Positions 19,977 through 28,260 of a DNA stretch of 64,000 nt are shown here, one piece after another. The stretch spans positions 3,295-67,294 of the forward strand of contig JAWBRA010000009.1 of the NCBI GenBank assembly GCA_038844785.1, read 5' to 3'. Numbering within the stretch: the stretch's first letter is position 1; every line of letters starts with the position of its first letter. The position numbers were made by a program, and so were the translations under genes. The notes under the pieces are model-generated. The model ran no database searches and was not told where the DNA came from. It saw only the letters and a list, made by a program, of their open reading frames with translations. The DNA comes from Candidatus Caldarchaeum sp. Lineage in GTDB: Archaea > Thermoproteota > Nitrososphaeria_A > Caldarchaeales > Caldarchaeaceae.

Positions 19977-21023
19977 ATGCCCAAAATAAACAGCGCAGCC
20001 ATAATCGGCTACGGTCTCTACATACCTAGGTACCGAATAAGAGGGGAGGAGTTGGCTAGGGTTTGGGGGAAAAGCAAGTCAGACCTCCCTGTTAAAGAGA
20101 AAGCAGTAGCAGGTCCTGACGAGGACACGGTTACTATGTCGGTGGAGGCGGCGCGCTACGCTTTAAAGAGAGCTGGAGTAGACCCGTCGAAGATCTCGGC
20201 CGTACATGTGGGGACGGAGTCAAAGCCTTACGCCGTCAAGCCAAGCGGCACGCTTGTGGCTGAGATACTTGGCGCCTCTAGGAACACAACCTCAGCTGAC
20301 CTCGAGTTCGCATGCAAGGCAGGGACGGAGGCTGTTCAAATGGTGACAGCCCTTGTCGAGTCGGGAAGAATAGAATATGGCCTGGCGATTGGCGCTGACA
20401 CAGCTCAAGGAAGGCCTGGAGATGCTCTTGAATACACCGCTGCCAGCGGAGCCGCCGCCTTCGTCATCGGAAAAGCCGACAACAGCTGCATAGCTAAGTT
20501 TGAATACTCTGTCTCGGTCGTAACGGACACTCCTGACTTTTGGCGTAGGAGCTATGAGCGATATCCCGTCCACGCCTCCCGGTTCACAGGCGAGCCAGCT
20601 TACTTCCACCACACCCTTACAGCCGTTAACACAATACTGGAGGAGAACGGCTACTCAGTAGATGACATCGACTACTTCGTATTTCATCAGCCAAACGTAA
20701 AGTTTCCACTCACAGCAGCGAAGCTGCTCTCCATACCCAGCTCGAAGATAGCTCCGGGTATAGTTGCGGACGTTGTTGGCAACACATACGCAGCATGCTC
20801 TATGTTGGGCCTCGCTAAAGTGCTTGACATAGCCGTACCCGGCCAAAGAATTCTGATGACATCGTACGGCTCAGGCGCCGGCAGCGATTCCTTCATCATA
20901 ACCGTCTGCGACGGAATCGTTGAAAAAAGAGACAAGGCTCCCACGTTCCAGCAGCTGCTAAGCCGAAACAAGCAGGTTGACTACGCCACTTACTTAAAGT
21001 TCAGAGATAAGATAAGGGTGTAG
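19977..21023 (+). CDS. Hydroxymethylglutaryl-CoA synthase (archaeal type)
   Basis: 348 aa. N-terminus IIGYGLYIPRYRI with a catalytic Cys context (EFACKAGTEA). Followed by thiolase and DUF35 genes, the conserved archaeal trio. Confidence 0.85.
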   Translation: MPKINSAAIIGYGLYIPRYRIRGEELARVWGKSKSDLPVKEKAVAGPDEDTVTMSVEAARYALKRAGVDPSKISAVHVGTESKPYAVKPSGTLVAEILGASRNTTSADLEFACKAGTEAVQMVTALVESGRIEYGLAIGADTAQGRPGDALEYTAASGAAAFVIGKADNSCIAKFEYSVSVVTDTPDFWRRSYERYPVHASRFTGEPAYFHHTLTAVNTILEENGYSVDDIDYFVFHQPNVKFPLTAAKLLSIPSSKIAPGIVADVVGNTYAACSMLGLAKVLDIAVPGQRILMTSYGSGAGSDSFIITVCDGIVEKRDKAPTFQQLLSRNKQVDYATYLKFRDKIRV

Positions 21024-21026
21024 TGT

Positions 21027-22181
21027 TTGAGGGCCTACCTATGCGGAGGTGCTGTCTTAAAAGTTGACGAACACTGGGATAAAAGCCTAGCAAACCTTCT
21101 CGCCGAAGCAGGGTTGAGAGCTCTCGAATCCTCCGGCATCTCCTACGTGGACCATGTATTCATTGCAAACGTTTACGGGGAGGTTTTGCAGGAGCAAGCC
21201 AATCTAGGTACGTTGCTTGCTGAAGAGCTTGGGCTCAGAGGCGTTACGGCAGCACGTGTTGAGGCCGGCGGAGCTTCGGGCTTGTCAGCGATATACGCAG
21301 GATGTTTAGCCGTAAACTCTGGACTTGCCAACGCGGTCCTCGTGGTTGGCGCCGAGAAAATGTCTGACGGAACTGTTGAGGAAGCTGTATCTCTTTTGAC
21401 GATGGAAGAAAGACAAGATTACGTCGGCTTTTTAGGGGTTAGCCAGCTTGCGGAAGCGGCGTTGCTCTACAAGGAGTATCTGAAAAGATACAGAGTGGCC
21501 CCCGAAGACGTTGCTTACTTCACGGTTTTAAGCCATGAGAACTCTTCAACAGCGCCTCACGCCCAATACCAGTTTAAGGTAAGCCTCGAATCTGTTATCA
21601 GCTCGCCCTACGTCGCCGAGCCATTACACAGGCTTGAGACGACAGCACCAGCCGACGGTGCTGCCGCAATACTGGTCTTGTCGCAGGAGCTGGCAAAGCG
21701 GATGAAAGAGCCTAAATGCATTGTTACAGGGATTGGTTTCGCCGCCGATTTCATGACAGCCTTCGACAGAGAGGACCCGCTTGAGATGAGAAGTTTAGCC
21801 GACGCGGGGAGACGTGCTTTGGAGATGGCCGGCATACCGAAGTCAAAGGTGGATTTTATAGAACTCCACGATTCATACAGCATATTGGCGCCGCTATCAC
21901 TGGAGGCTTTGAGTCTTGCCGACAGGGGGCAGGCATGTCTGCAGGCTAGGAAAGGCCGTTTCAGTCTATCGGGTGAAATACCCATAAACACTTTCGGAGG
22001 CCTTAAGGGAAGAGGCTATCCCGTAGGAGCGTCCGGAGTCTACGCGGTGGTCGAGGCTTTTATGCAGCTTACTGACAGTGCTTCGAAAAATCAGGTAGCC
22101 AATGCCGACGTGGGCCTTGTAGAATCTCTGTCTGGCCTAGGGTCTTACGCAGGTGTTGCCGTTCTAGAGAGGGAGAGGTGA
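21027..22181 (+). CDS. Acetyl-CoA C-acetyltransferase (archaeal thiolase)
   Basis: 384 aa thiolase-like protein (SCP-x type) in the conserved position between HMGCS and DUF35. Confidence 0.8.
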   Translation: MRAYLCGGAVLKVDEHWDKSLANLLAEAGLRALESSGISYVDHVFIANVYGEVLQEQANLGTLLAEELGLRGVTAARVEAGGASGLSAIYAGCLAVNSGLANAVLVVGAEKMSDGTVEEAVSLLTMEERQDYVGFLGVSQLAEAALLYKEYLKRYRVAPEDVAYFTVLSHENSSTAPHAQYQFKVSLESVISSPYVAEPLHRLETTAPADGAAAILVLSQELAKRMKEPKCIVTGIGFAADFMTAFDREDPLEMRSLADAGRRALEMAGIPKSKVDFIELHDSYSILAPLSLEALSLADRGQACLQARKGRFSLSGEIPINTFGGLKGRGYPVGASGVYAVVEAFMQLTDSASKNQVANADVGLVESLSGLGSYAGVAVLERER

Positions 22182-22585
22182 GCGAAGTGTCGGTAAGACC
22201 TCCCGCATACTGGCGTTCTAGACCTTTCATATACAGGCTTGAGGGCAGCCGCTGCACCGTATGCGGTCACTTCCATCCATATAAGAGGCTTGTATGCAGG
22301 AGATGCAGGTCTAAACGTTTAGACGAAGACAGACTTCCCTCAAAGGGAAGATTGCTGTATTACACGGTTGTGACGCAGGCGCAGCATGGGTTTGAAAACA
22401 ACACGCCGTACATAGTTGGATTGGTGGAGATAGATGACGGCACCCAGCTTGTTGGCCAGCTGACCGACTGCGATCCAGAAGACCTGAAGCCCGGAACAGT
22501 TGTTGAACCTGTTGTCAGAAGAATAAGAGCCGACGGCGACTCTAGGCTTATTGTGTACGGGGCTAAGTTTAAACCCCTTGTTTAA
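22178..22585 (+). CDS. DUF35 OB-fold / zinc-ribbon protein (thiolase-HMGCS scaffold)
   Basis: 135 aa with a Zn ribbon (CTVCGHFHPYKRLVCRRC) followed by an OB-fold region. Overlaps the thiolase gene by 4 nt. Confidence 0.8.
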   Translation: MSEVSVRPPAYWRSRPFIYRLEGSRCTVCGHFHPYKRLVCRRCRSKRLDEDRLPSKGRLLYYTVVTQAQHGFENNTPYIVGLVEIDDGTQLVGQLTDCDPEDLKPGTVVEPVVRRIRADGDSRLIVYGAKFKPLV

Positions 22586-23361
22586 TGGCTCATAACGCTC
22601 TTCCATACGAGTAGCGTCGCATACTCTCGGGGGATGGCTTCCTGCTGCGCAACCCTTTCTATCTCTGCTCTCAACACGGACTCCGCCCTAGGGCCGTGTG
22701 TCAGCATATAACGTTTTTTAACATCTTCAAACAGCTTTGCTACTTCTTCCTTGCTTGAGGTTAGGTCCGTTATTGTGCGGGGTAGGTCCGACAGTTGTTT
22801 AATCATGTCGTCGACAGTCTTCAATCTGTTTCGGATGCTTGTTAGCTTCTTTCTGAGCTCTGGAATACGGGCTTCCAGCTCCTCCTTCAGTCCCACGTTT
22901 TTCGCGTTTGGTTTATCTCCTTCGAGCTGCATAGTGTTAAGCTCTATGCTGGACCATATTAGCTCCTCTTCGACCTCGGCGAACTCAGAGCCTAAAGCGT
23001 CCCTGGCCCTTTTGAGCTTCTCCAAAACATTTTCCGACTTCACAAGAACAGCTCTCCTTCTCTCTGCTAGACGGCTGAGAATGCTTCGTATAAGCTGTGG
23101 CCTTAATTCATCGAGCTTCATACAGTAGGCGATGAAATTTTTGTCAATGTTCCTAAGCCTCTCAACCTCCTTCATAACCTCGTCGTAGAGCTGGAGCGCT
23201 TCGTCAAGGTCTCCACCTTCCTGTTGCGGCTGAGGCTGAGCCTGCTCCTGCGGTGGCTCCTCTTTCACCACGGGTACCTCCACATCCTGCTGGACAGGCA
23301 AAGCCTCAACCTCAGGAGGCTCCGAAGCCTTTTTCACTTTCAAGACTATTTTTTTCACCAC
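22582..23361 (-). CDS. Hypothetical coiled-coil protein with N-terminal Pro/Gln/Glu-rich low-complexity region
   Basis: 259 aa. Residues about 10-50 are PEVEALPVQQDVEVPVVKEEPPQEQAQPQPQQE, and the remainder is heptad-rich. Same strand as, and immediately downstream of, the JAMM protease gene. Confidence 0.55.
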   Translation of the reverse strand: MVKKIVLKVKKASEPPEVEALPVQQDVEVPVVKEEPPQEQAQPQPQQEGGDLDEALQLYDEVMKEVERLRNIDKNFIAYCMKLDELRPQLIRSILSRLAERRRAVLVKSENVLEKLKRARDALGSEFAEVEEELIWSSIELNTMQLEGDKPNAKNVGLKEELEARIPELRKKLTSIRNRLKTVDDMIKQLSDLPRTITDLTSSKEEVAKLFEDVKKRYMLTHGPRAESVLRAEIERVAQQEAIPREYATLLVWKSVMSH

Positions 23362-23393
23362 AGTCTAACACCTTTAAACGCTGCCTCTAGTCT

Positions 23394-24002
23394 TCAAATG
23401 CCGAACAGCTTTTTAGCTTTTCCAAGCAGGCCTCCCCCCTCTCCCTCCGATGGATTGTTCGCGGTCTTACCCCCAGACTCTGCAACAATCTGGCGGATGT
23501 CAAACGTGGCCAACGCATGGAGAGTGCTTTCAAGCAGCTTTGTCCTATGTACTCCTATAGAAACTGGGAGGGAGACAACCTTGCCCTCTTTGGAGATTTG
23601 GAAAACCTTGAAATCTAGTGATGAAATTTCTCGGGTTCTTGCGTAGTTTACGGGGTCTATAACCAACGCAACCGCTTTCGGATACATGAGCTGATACCTT
23701 TTTTGAGTGTCTATGTCTGTAGGGGATAGGAAAACGTCCAGCCCAGGATGTGAATGGTACCAGCCAACTATGTAAAGTCCTTTGCCTTCTTGTGCCAACT
23801 GTTCAGCTACACGTGACATCACAGATTCATCGAGTTGGACGTAGGCAGGCGTCCCATACTGCTCGCCCGTCATAGCATCCCATATCTCTAAAACCTTGCC
23901 AGCCGACTTGCCGACCAAAAGGCCAGCCACCTCCTTGTTCAAATTTGCGGTTGAATGCTTAACTATCTTGGCGAGGGCTAGGGGGTATATCCTTACACGC
24001 AT
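23394..24002 (-). CDS. JAMM/MPN+ metalloprotease, Rpn11-like deubiquitinase / pro-ubiquitin processing peptidase
   Basis: 202 aa with the complete JAMM motif: a Glu in EVAGLLVGK, then GWYHSHPGLDVFLSPTD (H-x-H-x7-S-x2-D). Divergent from the Ub-E2-E1-RING operon. Confidence 0.85.
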   Translation of the reverse strand: MRVRIYPLALAKIVKHSTANLNKEVAGLLVGKSAGKVLEIWDAMTGEQYGTPAYVQLDESVMSRVAEQLAQEGKGLYIVGWYHSHPGLDVFLSPTDIDTQKRYQLMYPKAVALVIDPVNYARTREISSLDFKVFQISKEGKVVSLPVSIGVHRTKLLESTLHALATFDIRQIVAESGGKTANNPSEGEGGGLLGKAKKLFGI

Positions 24003-24119
24003 TGGGTAAACAATGGATAAAGGTCAATAATAAGAATGACTTGACATAGGTAGCCTACGCCTCTTTGAATGTTATCGAGATACCTCTCCGGCCGTTTCGG
24101 TGTTTTACACATGGTTAAA

Positions 24120-24129
24120 CCTTATATAC
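24120..24129 (+). promoter_or_regulatory. TATA box (CTTATATA) for Ub-E2-E1-RING operon, leaderless
   Basis: Lies about 25-30 nt upstream of the ATG at 24153, which supports the internal Met (MKIKIV..) as the true start. Confidence 0.45.
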
Positions 24130-24152
24130 GCTCAAAAGAAAAAAACTGCAGA

Positions 24153-24416
24153 ATGAAGATAAAGATTGTTCCCGCAGTTGGTGGAGGTACACCCTTGGAG
24201 CTTGAGGTTTCACCCAACGCGACAGTTGGTGCTGTCAGGACTAAGGTGTGTGCTATAAAGAAGCTTCCCCCCGACACTACTAGGTTGACATACAAAGGGA
24301 GGGCTTTGAAAGATACTGAAACCCTACAAAGCATAGGGGTGTCTGACGGTGATAAATTTGTGTTGATAACTAGGACGGTGGGGGGAGTTGGAAAACCTTT
24401 ACGTGGAGCTGCCTGA
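24153..24416 (+). CDS. Ubiquitin-like beta-grasp protein precursor (Gly-Gly followed by 9-aa C-terminal extension)
   Basis: 87 aa from MKIKIV. The mature 78 residues end ..LITRTVGG, and VGKPLRGAA follows. It carries a ubiquitin-like hydrophobic patch and LTYKGRALKD, comparable to ubiquitin's LIFAGKQLED. The maximal ORF starts at 24069, but the TATA position favours 24153. Confidence 0.8.
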   Translation: MKIKIVPAVGGGTPLELEVSPNATVGAVRTKVCAIKKLPPDTTRLTYKGRALKDTETLQSIGVSDGDKFVLITRTVGGVGKPLRGAA

Positions 24417-24894
24417 GACCGCGTGGTACAAACGTCTGGCGCTCGAGTATTCGTTGATGCAGGAGCATGAGCCTACGTTCAACCCTGTGGAAAACGACCT
24501 CACCCACTACGAGGGCGTAATAATAGGAACAAACATGTATGAAGGCGGGTACTTTAGGGTAGAGATACTTCTCCCACGGTCGTATCCTTTTTATCCACCT
24601 GACGTTGTTTGGCATACTCGTATCTGGCATCCTAACTTTTCCGACAGCGTGCCAGCCCGTGTGTGTGAGTCCGTGTTTAAAGACCATTGGTCGCCGTCTC
24701 TAAGGCTTGTAGCCGTGATAGAGTCTCTTCGAAACCTTTTGAACAACCCAAACCCGGAAGACCCCCTGAACCCTGTGGCGGCGTTCGAGTACAAGAACAG
24801 GCCGGACCTTTTCATGGCTAGAGTTAGACAGTTTATAGAAGAATATGCAACACCTGAGCAGGCGTTTAAACAAAGCAAGCGAAAGGGGCTCTAG
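24388..24894 (+). CDS. Ubiquitin-conjugating enzyme E2 (UBC fold)
   Basis: 168 aa with the HPN motif (WHPNF) and active-site context ARVCESVFKDHWSPSLRL (compare canonical C..L...W.P). The start overlaps the Ub precursor tail by 29 nt. Confidence 0.85.
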   Translation: MENLYVELPETAWYKRLALEYSLMQEHEPTFNPVENDLTHYEGVIIGTNMYEGGYFRVEILLPRSYPFYPPDVVWHTRIWHPNFSDSVPARVCESVFKDHWSPSLRLVAVIESLRNLLNNPNPEDPLNPVAAFEYKNRPDLFMARVRQFIEEYATPEQAFKQSKRKGL

Positions 24895-24896
24895 GT

Positions 24897-26087
24897 TTGG
24901 GTGAAAGCCCCACGCTAGCCAGATACGATAGACAGCTAAGGCTTGATGGATGGGACCAGTACAAGCTGATGTCCGCAAAAGTTGTGATCGCCGGAGTTGG
25001 TGCTCTTGGATGTGAGGCGGCTAAAAACCTGGCTCTGATGGGTGTTGGTGAACTTTTGCTTGTTGATAATGATGTGGTGGAACTGTCTAACCTAAGCCGT
25101 CAGATGTTGTACATGGATGAGGATGTTGGAAAGCCGAAGGCCTTGGTTGCTGAGGACCGCGTTAAAAAAATGAACCCGTCGATCAACGTTGTTGGCCTGC
25201 AGATGGATGTGCGTCAAATTCCCGAGGAGGTTTTCGCGAAGGCTGATGTTCTGGTAAGCTGTGTTGACAACTGGCCTACTAGGAGGTGGATAAACTCTAT
25301 GGCCGTTGAGGTGGGTAAACCGTTAGTAGACATTGCCACAGACGCATACTATGGAAATGTTCAAGTAGTCGTCCCAGGGAAGACGGCATGCATTGAATGT
25401 CATGCTGAGGCCTTGATTCCAACTGAGGTTCAGGCTGCAGAATGTTCTCTTAGGCGGAGAAAGCCGGAGGATTTGATTGCCGAACTCTATGAAAAGGGAA
25501 TATCTTTGGACCGACAGGAGGCTGAAGAGCTTTTCCGACATAATATTAAAACGCTTTATGACATCAAGTATGCTCCGCAAAGACTCGTAGACTCTCTGGA
25601 TGAAAATGTAAGAAGCCTTGTTTTAAGACTTCGTGGTCTTTTAAACCCTAAGATGCCTGCGCTCCAAAGCGTTTCCGCAACCATTGCAGGGTTGGGTGTT
25701 TTCGAAACAGTTAGGATACTGCATAAAGGGCTTCTTGGAAAGCCTTTCAGCGGTTTGTTTATGTACGACGGTCTCAGGGGAAGGTTGACGAAGGTGCAGC
25801 TTGACAGGAACATGTTATGTCACGTGTGCAGCGTGGACGAAGAACAGCCCATAGAGCTGGAGATATCAAACAAGGAAAAAGTTGCCGACATACGGGAGAG
25901 AATCGCCAACAAGTTCATGTTCCCCGACGCACGGATACAGTTTGGTGCGAAGCTTCTCGACGACTCTGCTGAGGTTAGGGAAATCGGCTTAACGGACCGG
26001 GACATCCTGTACGTACACTCGACGAGAAGGGCTACGCCTCTAGCTTTACGGGTGAAAATCCTTGAAGATAGTGATCAAAGAGGTTAA
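24897..26087 (+). CDS. Ubiquitin-activating enzyme E1-like (ThiF/MoeB/UBA fold) with C-terminal ubiquitin-fold domain
   Basis: 396 aa with a Rossmann motif (GVGALGCEAAKNL...LLVDND). Two CxxC pairs (CIEC and CHVC) are as in MoeB/ThiF zinc sites, and there is a candidate catalytic Cys in AAECS. The C-terminal roughly 90 aa are beta-grasp-like. It begins 2 nt after the E2 stop. Confidence 0.85.
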   Translation: MGESPTLARYDRQLRLDGWDQYKLMSAKVVIAGVGALGCEAAKNLALMGVGELLLVDNDVVELSNLSRQMLYMDEDVGKPKALVAEDRVKKMNPSINVVGLQMDVRQIPEEVFAKADVLVSCVDNWPTRRWINSMAVEVGKPLVDIATDAYYGNVQVVVPGKTACIECHAEALIPTEVQAAECSLRRRKPEDLIAELYEKGISLDRQEAEELFRHNIKTLYDIKYAPQRLVDSLDENVRSLVLRLRGLLNPKMPALQSVSATIAGLGVFETVRILHKGLLGKPFSGLFMYDGLRGRLTKVQLDRNMLCHVCSVDEEQPIELEISNKEKVADIRERIANKFMFPDARIQFGAKLLDDSAEVREIGLTDRDILYVHSTRRATPLALRVKILEDSDQRG

Positions 26088-26292
26088 CGCAGGGTTCTGG
26101 AACCCTTTCGAAGATGAGGATAGAACGAAGCAGAAGCTTAATTTCTGCGTTATCTGCGGGCTTGAAATTTCAAACGAAAAAACATATTCATGCCCCCACT
26201 GTGGTTCTGTGGGGCATATGTCATGTTTTGACGACTGGCTGCTGATAAGAAAGTCATGCCCGCTGTGCAGGAGGCCTATAGCGGAGGGATGA
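26062..26292 (+). CDS. Small RING-type (C4HC3) zinc finger protein, putative E3
   Basis: 76 aa with C-x2-C-x11-C-x2-C-x4-H-x2-C-x10-C-x2-C (CVIC..CPHC..H..C..CPLC), plus a Trp in the last loop as in RING E2-binding surfaces. Overlaps the E1 3' end by 26 nt. Confidence 0.8.
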   Translation: MKIVIKEVNAGFWNPFEDEDRTKQKLNFCVICGLEISNEKTYSCPHCGSVGHMSCFDDWLLIRKSCPLCRRPIAEG

Positions 26293-26298
26293 ACCAAT

Positions 26299-26610
26299 AT
26301 GGCTGAAGAAAAGAACGAAAAAGTCATAGAGCTCGACTTTTTGGAGACTCCAAAAGGCCCTGTAGCTCGTTTTGACGGAGTTAAACAGCTTGCCGAGTTG
26401 GTTGTAGAGGTTTTTCAAGAGTTGGAAAAGTTGAATGAAAAAATCAAATCCTTTGAGAAGGAGGAAAAAGCACCGGAGAGTATCGAAAGAAGGTTGAAGG
26501 ACATAGAGGACCAGCTTGCTGTCCTTTCGGACGACATGCGTGAGATACTGAACGCCCTGGGAGAGCTTTCTGCCACAGTAGCCCAGCTTAGGAAAGCCCT
26601 CAAATTATGA
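26299..26610 (+). CDS. Small coiled-coil protein, possible distal member of Ub operon
   Basis: 103 aa, highly charged and heptad-rich (ELEKLNEKIKSFEKEEK..., DIEDQLAVLSDDMREILNALGEL). Starts 7 nt after the RING gene stop. Confidence 0.5.
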   Translation: MAEEKNEKVIELDFLETPKGPVARFDGVKQLAELVVEVFQELEKLNEKIKSFEKEEKAPESIERRLKDIEDQLAVLSDDMREILNALGELSATVAQLRKALKL

Positions 26611-27438
26611 GGTTAGAAAAGCACGTCTCATCTCAGTTATCAGCTCGTTCAGCTCAGCCCTCCGTTTCTCCATCTGTGCAACCTCGTTCGAAAGAGATTC
26701 TTTATAGGCTTCGAGCTTGTTGATTTCTTCTTTAAGCTTGTTGGCTGTCGCTATCAATTTCTCAGCCTCAGCCTTGCTGTTTTCGAGAATAGCAAGCTTA
26801 TCCTCCAGCTCCTTCTCCCTACGTATCATCCGCTCCATTCTGATCTCTCTGAGCTTGAACATTTTGTCCATCTCTTTTCCAAAGCTTTCAAGCTTCTTCT
26901 GAGAATCTTCAAAGGCGGTCAAGTAACGCTCCTTAAGCATGTTTATCTCCTCCTCCAGACTCTCCTTTTTACGCATTAAGTCCTTTAGGGTTTCTTGGGC
27001 TTCGGCTATCTGCCGCTCTTTCTGCTCAAGCTCTGCTTTCCAGCGAGCCACCTCTTCTCTCAGCATCGCTAAGCTTTCTCTCTCAGTTTTGTATCGTTGA
27101 GCTTCCTTCATAAGGTTCTCCCTTTCCTTGAACAGCAAGTCAGCTGTTTCATGCAAGCTTTCACGCAAGGACTTAATCTCCTCCGTTACCGCTTTTAAAG
27201 AGTCTAGTGTGTAGTCCAACACGGCAGTCTTTTCAAGCAAGCCCTGCAAACGAGCCATAGACTTATGAGGTGTTGAAAACTGCTCAAGAACCAACCTTAC
27301 GTCCTCCTTGATTTTGGCCAACGCCTCCTCAACAAGCCCTATTCTCTCCTCCATCCGTTCAGTGAGCTGGACCCTTAGAGCAGCAACCTCTTTGCGGAGG
27401 TCTGCTATGCTGTCGGGCCTTTTGGAAAGCAGCCCCAT
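26605..27438 (-). CDS. Long coiled-coil protein
   Basis: 277 aa that is almost entirely heptad-repeat charged sequence (E/K/R/L rich). Convergent with, and overlapping, the 103-aa coiled-coil gene by 6 nt. Confidence 0.55.
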   Translation of the reverse strand: MGLLSKRPDSIADLRKEVAALRVQLTERMEERIGLVEEALAKIKEDVRLVLEQFSTPHKSMARLQGLLEKTAVLDYTLDSLKAVTEEIKSLRESLHETADLLFKERENLMKEAQRYKTERESLAMLREEVARWKAELEQKERQIAEAQETLKDLMRKKESLEEEINMLKERYLTAFEDSQKKLESFGKEMDKMFKLREIRMERMIRREKELEDKLAILENSKAEAEKLIATANKLKEEINKLEAYKESLSNEVAQMEKRRAELNELITEMRRAFLTS

Positions 27439-27570
27439 ACCTTACTTAACATAAACAACATCGTTATAAACCCTATCTGTATGAAAAAACCCGAAAACTC
27501 GTGGAAATCGGTTCCTCCTGTTTTAAAAACATGTTTTTATATGGTGCGGTATCCAGAGAATTAGACGGCC

Positions 27571-28260
27571 ATGGTGGTGTCTGAGCAGCGGCTTCTGATA
27601 AGGTTTTTTAAGCTAGGGTCGTTGCTTGCACTGGTAGGCAGCATACATATTCTCACGCTTCTTCTCCCGTGGTATGTGGTGAGGGCCGACACTGTTTCCA
27701 GAACTATTGTCAGCGGGTATCTCCTGCTTGAGACGCTTCTTCTGTCGGTCATGGGAGGGGTTTTGGCAGGCGTGTCCCTCCTTGCCACATCATTCTCGAC
27801 TAGGGCAGGGGTTGTCAGAATTGTGTTGTCGGTTCTAGCTATTCTGGGAGGGGTTTTAGCCTTGTTCTCCCCGATATACTTAAACCTCATCATAATACCG
27901 CGTCTCAACGTCGCAGGAGAGCCAGACCTTGGTTTTTTCGCATCTCTTTTCTCAGCAGTTGCTCTAATTGCGCTCGGCCTTATAGTGGTTTTAACAAGGC
28001 CTCAGAAAGTTGAGCTACCCTACCCCGGCTACTACGGGATGTCAGAGATCACAACACCTTCGGCGCCGGCTGAGCAGACAACGATGGAGCCTGTGGACAC
28101 GGTTGACGAGGGGGTTGTTTGTCCAATATGCTACACGACGGTTACGGCGGAAAACGCTGTCAAATGCTCCTCCTGCGGCGTAGTCTTCCACTCGGGCTGC
28201 GCCGACGCATACGTCAACATCAACGGAACATGTCCAAACTGCGGCCGAGCAGTTGTTTAA
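27571..28260 (+). CDS. Membrane-anchored (4 TM) protein with C-terminal C4HC3 RING-like zinc finger; paralog of the small RING E3
   Basis: 229 aa with four hydrophobic helices in the first about 150 aa, then a soluble linker. The C-terminus is C-x2-C-x11-C-x2-C-x4-H-x2-C-x9-C-x2-C (CPIC..CSSC..H..C..CPNC), the same spacing as the small RING protein at 26062. Confidence 0.7.
   Translation: MVVSEQRLLIRFFKLGSLLALVGSIHILTLLLPWYVVRADTVSRTIVSGYLLLETLLLSVMGGVLAGVSLLATSFSTRAGVVRIVLSVLAILGGVLALFSPIYLNLIIIPRLNVAGEPDLGFFASLFSAVALIALGLIVVLTRPQKVELPYPGYYGMSEITTPSAPAEQTTMEPVDTVDEGVVCPICYTTVTAENAVKCSSCGVVFHSGCADAYVNINGTCPNCGRAVV

Follow-up and report, generated by a model that had tools for sequence, protein, structure and literature searches.

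Coiled-coil genes at the ubiquitin locus of a Caldarchaeum: a conserved pair linked to two RING genes and a separate companion of the deubiquitinase gene

Introduction

The ubiquitin operon of the Aigarchaeota is a reference model for the origin of eukaryotic ubiquitylation. Reconstitution of the system in vitro has relied on an artificial substrate alone. We analyzed this locus, and three genes for coiled-coil proteins that surround it (cc259, cc103, and cc277), in a stretch of 64,000 nucleotides (nt) from Candidatus Caldarchaeum sp., contig JAWBRA010000009.1, referred to here as the window. The closest described system is that of Candidatus Caldiarchaeum subterraneum, in which the operon Ub-E2-E1-srfp (ubiquitin, E2, E1, and small RING finger protein), together with a divergent gene for Rpn11, was described by Nunoura 2011 (PMC3082918) and reconstituted by Hennell James 2017 (PMC5654768). 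Nunoura 2011 drew the flanking open reading frames (ORFs) as hypothetical proteins, while the cascade and Rpn11 were reconstituted without them by Hennell James 2017 and by Fuchs 2018 (PMC6043591). Fuchs 2018 also mentions “a second E3 protein” adjoining the operon. The flanking ORFs are left unannotated in these three papers, which do not analyze the three helical proteins, and in the literature on the C. subterraneum flanking locus tags and on coiled-coil or transmembrane RING partners we found nothing on them.

The locus in the window is the same one, from a close relative: it shares with C. subterraneum all five known genes, their order, their overlaps, and the ubiquitin precursor of 87 amino acids (aa). 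What differs from the C. subterraneum accounts is that cc103 and cc277 can be shown to be more tightly linked to the RING genes than E1, E2, and Ub are. This pair is an Aigarchaeota-specific accessory layer of the known ubiquitin system that was previously undescribed, and all three accessory genes, cc259 included, appear to be undescribed. The genes on which the argument turns are the following, in window coordinates:

26062-26292, plus strand: srfp; Pfam zf-RING_2, 2.3e-9
26299-26610, plus strand: cc103, 103 aa; its ATG lies 6 nt past the srfp stop codon
26605-27438, minus strand: cc277, 277 aa; convergent with cc103, with a 6-nt overlap
27571-28260, plus strand: membrane-anchored RING-H2 protein, divergent from cc277; zf-RING_2, 1.4e-8, residues 184-224
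23394-24002, minus strand: JAMM/Rpn11-like deubiquitinase gene, the upstream partner gene of cc259; Pfam JAB, 2.6e-21
22582-23361, minus strand: cc259, 259 aa; starts with GTG, 32 nt past the end of the JAMM gene on the same strand

A coiled-coil pair retained with the RING genes

Related loci were gathered by exact look-ups, by an E2-seeded genome scan and a cc277-seeded metagenome scan, and from the hits of a HMMER search with a cc277 profile; their gene content was scored by tblastn and by reading ORFs. The convergent cc277/cc103 pair was kept in every locus that covers the region, about 55 loci that fall into eight architectures:

Architecture A (Caldarchaeum, HR01, and L062): aminoacyl-tRNA synthetase and membrane RING genes, then cc277 convergent with cc103-srfp-E1-E2-Ub, then JAMM-cc259, then DUF35-thiolase-HMGCS
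Architecture B (AUK008 type): like A, but with rpL21e after the JAMM gene and no cc259
Architecture C (Pelearchaeum): rpL11/L1/L10 ahead of Ub; no JAMM gene and no cc259
Architecture D (L044 type): E1-srfp-cc103 and, convergent with it, cc277, with the membrane RING gene next; no adjacent Ub, E2, or JAMM gene; Vps4 nearby
Architecture E (Calditenuaceae HR02 (L058) and L061): membrane RING gene and cc277 convergent with cc103-srfp, with no other genes of the system
Architecture F (L063): cc277 convergent with cc103-srfp, without the membrane RING gene
Architecture G (L060): the coiled-coil pair alone
Architecture H (L064): like A, but srfp and the cc103 homologue are separated by a helical ORF of 190 aa and a LAGLIDADG-like ORF (L064 7221-8511)

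Retention falls in order from the cc277-cc103 pair through srfp, the membrane RING gene, E1, E2/Ub, and the JAMM gene to cc259. The srfp gene is kept in all architectures but one, with a cc103 homologue after it in seven of the eight; most also have the membrane RING gene. Variation within the classes includes an inserted oxidoreductase gene in L044 and an inverted tRNA synthetase gene in five loci (both in architecture D), and two truncated contigs: that of L065 (architecture F) starts just upstream of cc277, where the membrane RING gene cannot be scored, and that of L064 ends within E1. We did not find cc259 in architectures B to H.

The surroundings of the module vary. The upstream side of the operon takes at least four different forms (JAMM-cc259-DUF35, JAMM-rpL21e, rpL11/L1/L10, and archaellum genes), and the tRNA synthetase gene next to the membrane RING gene is inverted or apart in some loci while the membrane RING gene stays. 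Thus cc103 and cc277 keep their adjacency across eight architectures in spite of rearranged surroundings. Because their linkage to the other genes is nested in this way, we assign cc103 and cc277 to the RING E3 genes rather than to the whole cassette. The initial annotation of the window had proposed that all three coiled-coil genes are tightly linked to the ubiquitin cassette, and had named their absence from synteny in related genomes as a finding that would weaken the idea. The pair was retained in synteny, and its linkage holds with respect to each other and to both RING genes, but not to the cassette as a whole. The membrane RING gene, which the initial annotation did not list and which adjoins cc277 in most clades, is the fourth member of a conserved module of two RING and two coiled-coil genes, and it is the gene to which the “second E3 protein” of Fuchs 2018 corresponds.

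Three other clades have a Vps4/CdvC gene (MIT and AAA domains) at a distance of 2-5 kb from the ubiquitin cluster, in one or the other of two arrangements (L003 12141-13250; L009 14078-15187; L062 from 16271; L044 12747-13859; L049 11937-13058); no such gene is present in the window. In L003 and L009 it is followed by a 253-aa protein with a C-terminal winged helix that is possibly CdvB-like. We did not use this protein as an in-lineage reference for CdvB, as it has only the winged helix and no Snf7 Pfam match.

Gene layout and transcription signals

The remaining features of the locus are as follows:

24153-24416, plus strand: Ub precursor, 87 aa; Pfam ubiquitin, 1.5e-12
24388-24894, plus strand: E2; Pfam UQ_con, 2.6e-30
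24897-26087, plus strand: E1; Pfam ThiF, 6.3e-59
27439-27570: divergent intergenic region of 132 nt, in which cc277 and the membrane RING gene each have a TATA-like box

The ubiquitin cassette that the initial annotation had recognized is borne out by the Pfam matches to JAB, ubiquitin, UQ_con, ThiF, and zf-RING_2, and the three heptad-rich ORFs around it lie exactly where they had been placed: the 259-aa ORF downstream of the JAMM gene on the same strand, with its acidic Pro/Gln-rich N-terminus, the 103-aa ORF right after the RING gene with a 6-nt spacer, and the 277-aa ORF convergent with the latter. For Ub, the start read from the sequence is the ATG at 24153, which gives the 87-aa precursor MKIKIVPAVGGG... 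and matches CsUb; a TATA-like “ttatata” lies about 25-32 nt upstream of it. The longest ORF there (24069-24416, plus strand, 115 aa) is probably not the gene, and the ATG at 24153 is preferred, in keeping with the CsUb-like 87-aa precursor (PMC6043591).

Same orientation, short spacing, and a ribosome-binding site, as would be expected for co-directional operons, are found both for cc103 after srfp and for cc259 after the JAMM gene. A GGAGG Shine-Dalgarno-like sequence lies 11-15 nt before the cc103 ATG, inside the 3' end of srfp. This sequence and the 6-nt spacer lead us to consider cc103 the fifth gene of the Ub-E2-E1-srfp operon, as had been suggested at the outset, and the recurrence of its homologue after srfp in nearly all architectures agrees with this. 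The same signals predict that cc103 is translationally coupled to srfp; the spacing between the two ranges from 1 to 126 nt in relatives. An aGGTG precedes the GTG start of cc259, and the JAMM-cc259 spacing runs from -50 to +32 nt across loci, where the negative values arise partly from longest-ORF start calls; actual gaps between the two genes in relatives measure 1-30 nt.

On the other side of the module, a TATA-like TTTATAA at 27463-27469 (minus strand) is located about 27 nt upstream of cc277, and a TATA-like box for the membrane RING gene at 27534-27542, so that the boxes in the spacer fall about 27-35 nt before each start codon. By the usual geometry of archaeal promoters, cc277 would have its own putative promoter and the divergent spacer would contain two. 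The stop codons of the convergent pair are interlocked at 26605-26610, where the plus-strand TTATGA reads Leu-stop for cc103 and the minus strand reads Ser-stop for cc277. Among the relatives, the 3' overlaps measure 4, 6, or 11 nt, with gaps of 13-14 nt in two loci (L021 and L063). Nearly all clades retain such an overlap, and with the stop codons interlocked in this way the cc103 and cc277 transcripts must have 3' ends that overlap in antisense.

Three real genes, but not one class

All three genes have homologues in many metagenome-assembled genomes (MAGs) and low dN/dS values, and for these reasons we consider them real. Against two orthologous loci, dN/dS was 0.08 and 0.10 for cc259, 0.07 and 0.03 for cc103, and 0.21 and 0.11 for cc277, all within the range of the neighboring enzymes; the three genes are under purifying selection. 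A crude scan of a/d heptad positions placed 47% of the residues of cc259, 79% of those of cc103, and 84% of those of cc277 in strong-heptad windows, compared to 2-11% for shuffled sequences and 0% for five neighboring enzymes. The heptad periodicity of the three ORFs is real. The window has 72 putative genes, of which only four reach the heptad threshold, and three of these four are cc259, cc103, and cc277 (hypergeometric P of about 3e-4 that three or more of the four heptad-rich genes would be found at the four positions flanking the cassette). The sole other heptad-rich ORF in the window (9745-10308, plus strand, 187 aa) has no Pfam match at E<=1.

None of the three proteins has a match above the curated cut-offs of Pfam, NCBIfam, or PADLOC, where the searches returned only sub-threshold coiled-coil noise; the absence of an enzymatic motif, as annotated initially, stands within these collections. 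The three proteins do not form a single class, and we rejected the idea that the families are paralogues, given pairwise hhalign probabilities below 5% between them.

The cc103, cc277, and RING proteins

cc103 begins with a conserved [IV][DE]TPxG motif (residues ~9-25), followed by two heptad helices split near Pro59. The motif is kept in all clades, at identities of 28-99%. Next to it in the operon, the N-terminus of srfp (26062-26130) carries a G-F-W-[ND]-P-[FWY] motif ahead of the RING domain that is likewise conserved in all clades and is a candidate docking site.

In the AlphaFold (AF2) model of cc277 (pLDDT 88), a helix spanning residues 9-54 is followed by one unbroken helix spanning residues 57-276. 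At 0.15 nm per residue, the ~220 residues of this long helix correspond to a rod of about 33 nm, which is presumably oligomeric. The mean column identity of the family is 77%, unusually high for a coiled coil, and the sequence contains a conserved N-terminal MGLLSK..D, a central W133/ELEQKERQ block, an LREIRMER block, and an invariant C-terminal RRAFLTS. The length is 273-288 aa in most clades, the protein contains 31 lysines, and it diverges no faster than E1 (55% versus 56% between the window and L003). The HMMER profile search recovered 15 representatives at E<=1e-10 among 1.84 billion proteins. Named members come from Caldarchaeum, Calditenuaceae HR02, and “Nitrososphaerota,” all of them Aigarchaeota, and none of the domain fusions sought among the same 1.84e9 representatives was informative. 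Two hits were set aside: P0117 has an N-terminal extension that probably reflects an ORF called too long, and P0127 is a longer coiled coil that matches only weakly.

The membrane RING protein has about four transmembrane (TM) helices by hydropathy (residues 15-33, 46-73, 81-108, and 120-145) and a C-terminal RING at residues 184-226.

cc259 and the JAMM gene

In all 32 of the loci that contain it (32 of 32), cc259 immediately follows the JAMM gene, and it was found nowhere else. Its family comprises 22 clusters, all from Caldarchaeum or Nitrososphaerota MAGs, and it was not found in the loci of the AUK008, Pelearchaeum, L044, or HR02 types. The linkage of cc259 to the cassette that had been annotated holds for its constant position after the JAMM gene, but its absence from several clades weakens a role as a general component. 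Retention of adjacency under rearrangement also holds only in part for cc259, as the DUF35-thiolase genes on its other side are likewise conserved. These form a trio with HMG-CoA synthase (HMG-CoA synthase, thiolase, and a DUF35/OB-fold gene; 19977-22585, plus strand), and the DUF35 gene and cc259 are convergent, with 3' ends that overlap by 4 nt.

The protein starts with a short basic motif, MxKKIVLK (consensus MPKKIVLKIK), followed by a variable, acidic linker rich in Pro, Gln, and Glu (from residue ~13 to residue ~47-50) that is modeled as disordered (pLDDT <50). The rest is modeled as a helical bundle with helices at residues 48-82, 88-146, 153-191, 193-201, 204-241, and 245-258; the AF2 pLDDT is 82 overall and above 90 in the bundle. 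Forty residues are invariant, including W136, N142, Y247, and W253; conservation of Trp, Asn, Tyr, and Pro positions such as those in the invariant set would not be expected of a generic coiled coil. The combination of a disordered acidic linker and a conserved helical bundle in the model suggests that cc259 could be an adaptor that localizes or regulates the deubiquitinase. It would be co-transcribed with the Rpn11-like gene in one sub-lineage, and it is unrelated to cc103 and cc277.

The JAMM protein itself is orthologous to CsRpn11, which has been characterized biochemically (PMC6043591, PMC5654768) and is monomeric and active alone, with C-terminal helices that are dispensable for catalysis (PMC6043591). 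Because they are dispensable, these helices may be free to serve as a docking site. The C-terminus of the JAMM protein in the window (23394-23430) is a basic amphipathic helix, GLL[GE]KAKKL[FL], which reads SVIKKFKEKL in clades without cc259. The helix does not track cc259, being kept in genomes with and without it alike. All clades conserve it, and it bears a vague likeness to an MIT-interacting motif.

Resemblances to known families

The size and charge distribution of the larger proteins had been likened to ESCRT-III/Snf7, a resemblance that did not survive closer examination. Neither cc259, cc103, and cc277 nor their distant homologues have a Pfam match to Snf7 (PF03357) at E<=1, and hhalign against yeast Snf7 (a sequence validated by Pfam at 3e-52) gave a probability of 0.1% for each of the two alignments tested. 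The asymmetry of a basic N-terminal and an acidic C-terminal half that marks ESCRT-III is absent, with isoelectric points (pI) of the halves of 5.3/6.2 in cc259 and 5.6/5.9 in cc277, all mildly acidic. Nor do the models fit the ESCRT-III core fold of a long alpha1-alpha2 hairpin with shorter packed helices: cc277 is modeled as a single helix of ~220 residues, and for the cc259 model no ESCRT-III structure was among the top 50 Foldseek matches in the PDB. ESCRT-III/Snf7 and CdvA/CdvB are thus alike to the cc proteins in size, helicity, and archaeal host, and Vps4 is near in some relatives, but every defining feature that was tested failed. As for CdvA, Pfam gave no PRC or CdvA model at E<=1, and no beta domain is predicted in cc277 or cc259.

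Placement in an unrelated housekeeping family, which had been named as a finding that would count against a link to ubiquitin, was not obtained either. Homologues of cc103 carry the JGI name “prefoldin subunit 5,” but PF02996 scores 17.2 bits against a cut-off of 23.2 and TIGR00293 14.1 against 53.9; the PDB prefoldin 1fxk matches cc103 at an E-value of 0.022, amid generic coiled-coil matches. Homologues of cc277 are called “Smc” or “chromosome segregation ATPase” by JGI and NCBI, but TIGR02168 scores 28 bits against 567 and ASRP 30 against 300. cc277 has no ATPase heads, the SMC-type matches (SMC/Rad50) cover only coiled-coil arms, and its 277 aa are almost pure helix. Profile searches of PDB sequences with the cc proteins returned generic coiled coils only. 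A match of cc103 to MCP (2e-7) was rejected as a compositional hairpin match among designed coiled coils and keratins. Compared to antiphage ubiquitin-like systems (Bil and CBASS-associated E1-E2-JAB), the PADLOC search yielded only SMC-arm noise for the coiled-coil proteins (LmuB and JetC, <=25 bits) and no match for the membrane RING protein.

Discussion

Gene context makes an adaptor or scaffold role the best reading for cc103 and cc277. The adaptor, scaffold, or substrate-recruitment roles suggested for all three proteins hold up to this extent, but not for the three as one class. More specifically, cc103 and cc277 would be structural subunits of RING E3 ligases and cc259 a partner of the Rpn11-like deubiquitinase, a combined proposal that we consider about evenly balanced between right and wrong. 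Our data establish the layout of the genes, their conservation and nested synteny, the predicted folds, and the lack of known domains; every physical interaction, and every ligase or deubiquitinase role, of these proteins is inferred from gene context. In the proposed arrangement, the Aigarchaeota-specific pair would be the core of the four-gene module srfp-cc103/cc277/membrane RING. cc103 would be made with srfp from the same mRNA and would dock through its N-terminal ETPxG peptide and its helical hairpin, while cc277 would oligomerize into a coiled-coil rod of ~30 nm, whose conserved ends and central block would connect the soluble unit of srfp and cc103 with substrates, with the membrane RING protein, or with the two together. 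The pair would in this way supply oligomerization, spacing, and substrate recruitment, which bare RING domains of 70-90 residues are without. A stronger version, in which srfp, cc103, cc277, and the membrane RING protein form one membrane-associated, multi-subunit RING E3 machine with the ~30 nm rod linking the soluble and membrane RINGs, is tentative, and we would sooner doubt it than accept it.

There are functional precedents for such arrangements. In the TRIM family, Bre1/RNF20-40, and TRAF, a RING is combined with a long coiled coil that dimerizes or spaces RINGs and with elements for substrates, and cc277 is likewise predicted to be a rod with conserved ends. However, the RING and the coiled coil are separate polypeptides here, and there is no B-box and no detectable sequence similarity, which makes this a functional analogy only. 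The Hrd1-Hrd3-Usa1 ligases of endoplasmic reticulum (ER)-associated degradation similarly have a polytopic membrane protein with a C-terminal cytosolic RING-H2, and in the module candidates for non-enzymatic partners are adjacent. Archaea have no ER, and there are further differences: about four TM helices here against eight in Hrd1, and partners that are coiled coils rather than Sel1 repeats, with the likeness known from the RING alone. For cc259, the comparison is to partners of JAMM enzymes (Rpn8 and the lid helical bundle, Abraxas/BRCC45-BRCC36, and STAM-AMSH). It is likewise all-helical, non-enzymatic, and in an operon with an Rpn11-like enzyme, but it is without MPN, PCI, VHS, or UIM domains, has no PDB match at E<=0.001, and has a narrower distribution than the JAMM gene.

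Several observations weigh against the subunit and partner roles proposed above. The C. subterraneum cascade works in vitro without the cc proteins (PMC5654768), and CsRpn11 is active alone (PMC6043591). As the cascade works without them, the cc proteins are not required for basic catalysis and could at most modulate, localize, or give specificity. The tRNA synthetase gene is also near the module in most loci, and the downstream synteny is possibly in part inherited order. Moreover, L060 keeps the coiled-coil pair alone, with no RING gene within 8 kb, which suggests that a neighboring RING gene may not be strictly necessary for what the pair does. Some lineages have the JAMM gene beside Ub but no cc259. 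Lastly, the E2-seeded scan worked with very specific peptide patterns and reached only E2 proteins of at least 67% identity, so that its scope stops short of more distant ubiquitin operons such as those of Asgard archaea and bacteria.

The main rival to the subunit reading is that cc277 is a regulated structural target: the cc proteins, cc277 above all, would be substrates, forming a lineage-specific cytoskeletal or membrane-remodeling structure under the control of the RING ligases that could replace CdvA, a protein missing from Aigarchaeota. This is consistent with the lysine-rich, rod-like character of cc277 (31 Lys), with the ubiquitylation of lysines in a Rad50 coiled coil by the C. subterraneum cascade in vitro (PMC5654768), and with the presence of CdvB and CdvC, and not CdvA, in C. 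subterraneum (PMC3082918). The Vps4/CdvC gene 2-5 kb from the cluster in three other clades, and the one genome that keeps the coiled-coil pair without a nearby RING gene, point the same way. However, Pfam gives no match to CdvA, the PRC barrel, or cytoskeletal families, Vps4 is not in this window, and the predicted translational coupling of cc103 to srfp is more typical of a subunit than of a substrate; we think the target reading unlikely. A related proposal is that cc259 and cc277 are divergent ESCRT-III/Snf7-like polymers that remodel membranes. Ubiquitin and ESCRT genes are linked in Asgard archaea, the two proteins are similar to ESCRT-III in their sizes (259 and 277 aa) and all-helical nature, and Vps4 is near the cluster in some relatives. 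Given that even distant members have no Snf7 match, that hhalign gives next to nothing, that the halves are all mildly acidic (pI 5.3-6.2), that cc277 is one continuous helix, and that cc259 has no ESCRT-III match in Foldseek, we find this proposal scarcely credible.

The three genes could also owe their position to inherited gene order only, as genes for ordinary lineage-specific coiled-coil proteins that act, for example, in chromosome organization and play no part in ubiquitylation. The homologues all belong to a single archaeal order, and in the Caldarchaeum and HR01 clades the whole block of ~12 genes is syntenic, housekeeping genes included. Several members also bear the JGI names “chromosome segregation ATPase” or “prefoldin subunit 5.” These names are contradicted by the lack of an ATPase head and by the NCBIfam SMC and prefoldin scores (28 bits against 567, and 17 against 23). 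In at least six architectures the housekeeping genes on the flanks have been rearranged, but the pair has remained beside the RING genes. Co-regulated units are also suggested by the interlocking of the stop codons and by the spacing of 1-7 nt to srfp. Because the contexts are reshuffled, pure inherited synteny is improbable, and decidedly so in our estimate.

A conserved non-catalytic pair that tracks the two RING genes better than E1, E2, and ubiquitin do offers concrete candidates for the missing adaptor or scaffold layer, and the link to the membrane RING protein suggests that the ubiquitin system may act at the membrane. Were the four proteins to form one RING E3 machine, the RING ligases that have several subunits or a coiled coil would have an archaeal forerunner, and the “minimal” archaeal ubiquitin system would gain the specificity module that it is missing. 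On the same reading, cc259 would be the first partner dedicated to an Rpn11 of archaea. Irrespective of function, the misleading database names “Smc,” “chromosome segregation ATPase,” and “prefoldin subunit 5” are corrected.

Other observations

An acylphosphatase domain in L044 (10550-11278, minus strand) is fused to approximately eight tandem 7-residue EFRDFRx repeats, upstream of E1 with a gap of ~0.7 kb. The matching position in L049 has a plain acylphosphatase of 87 aa.

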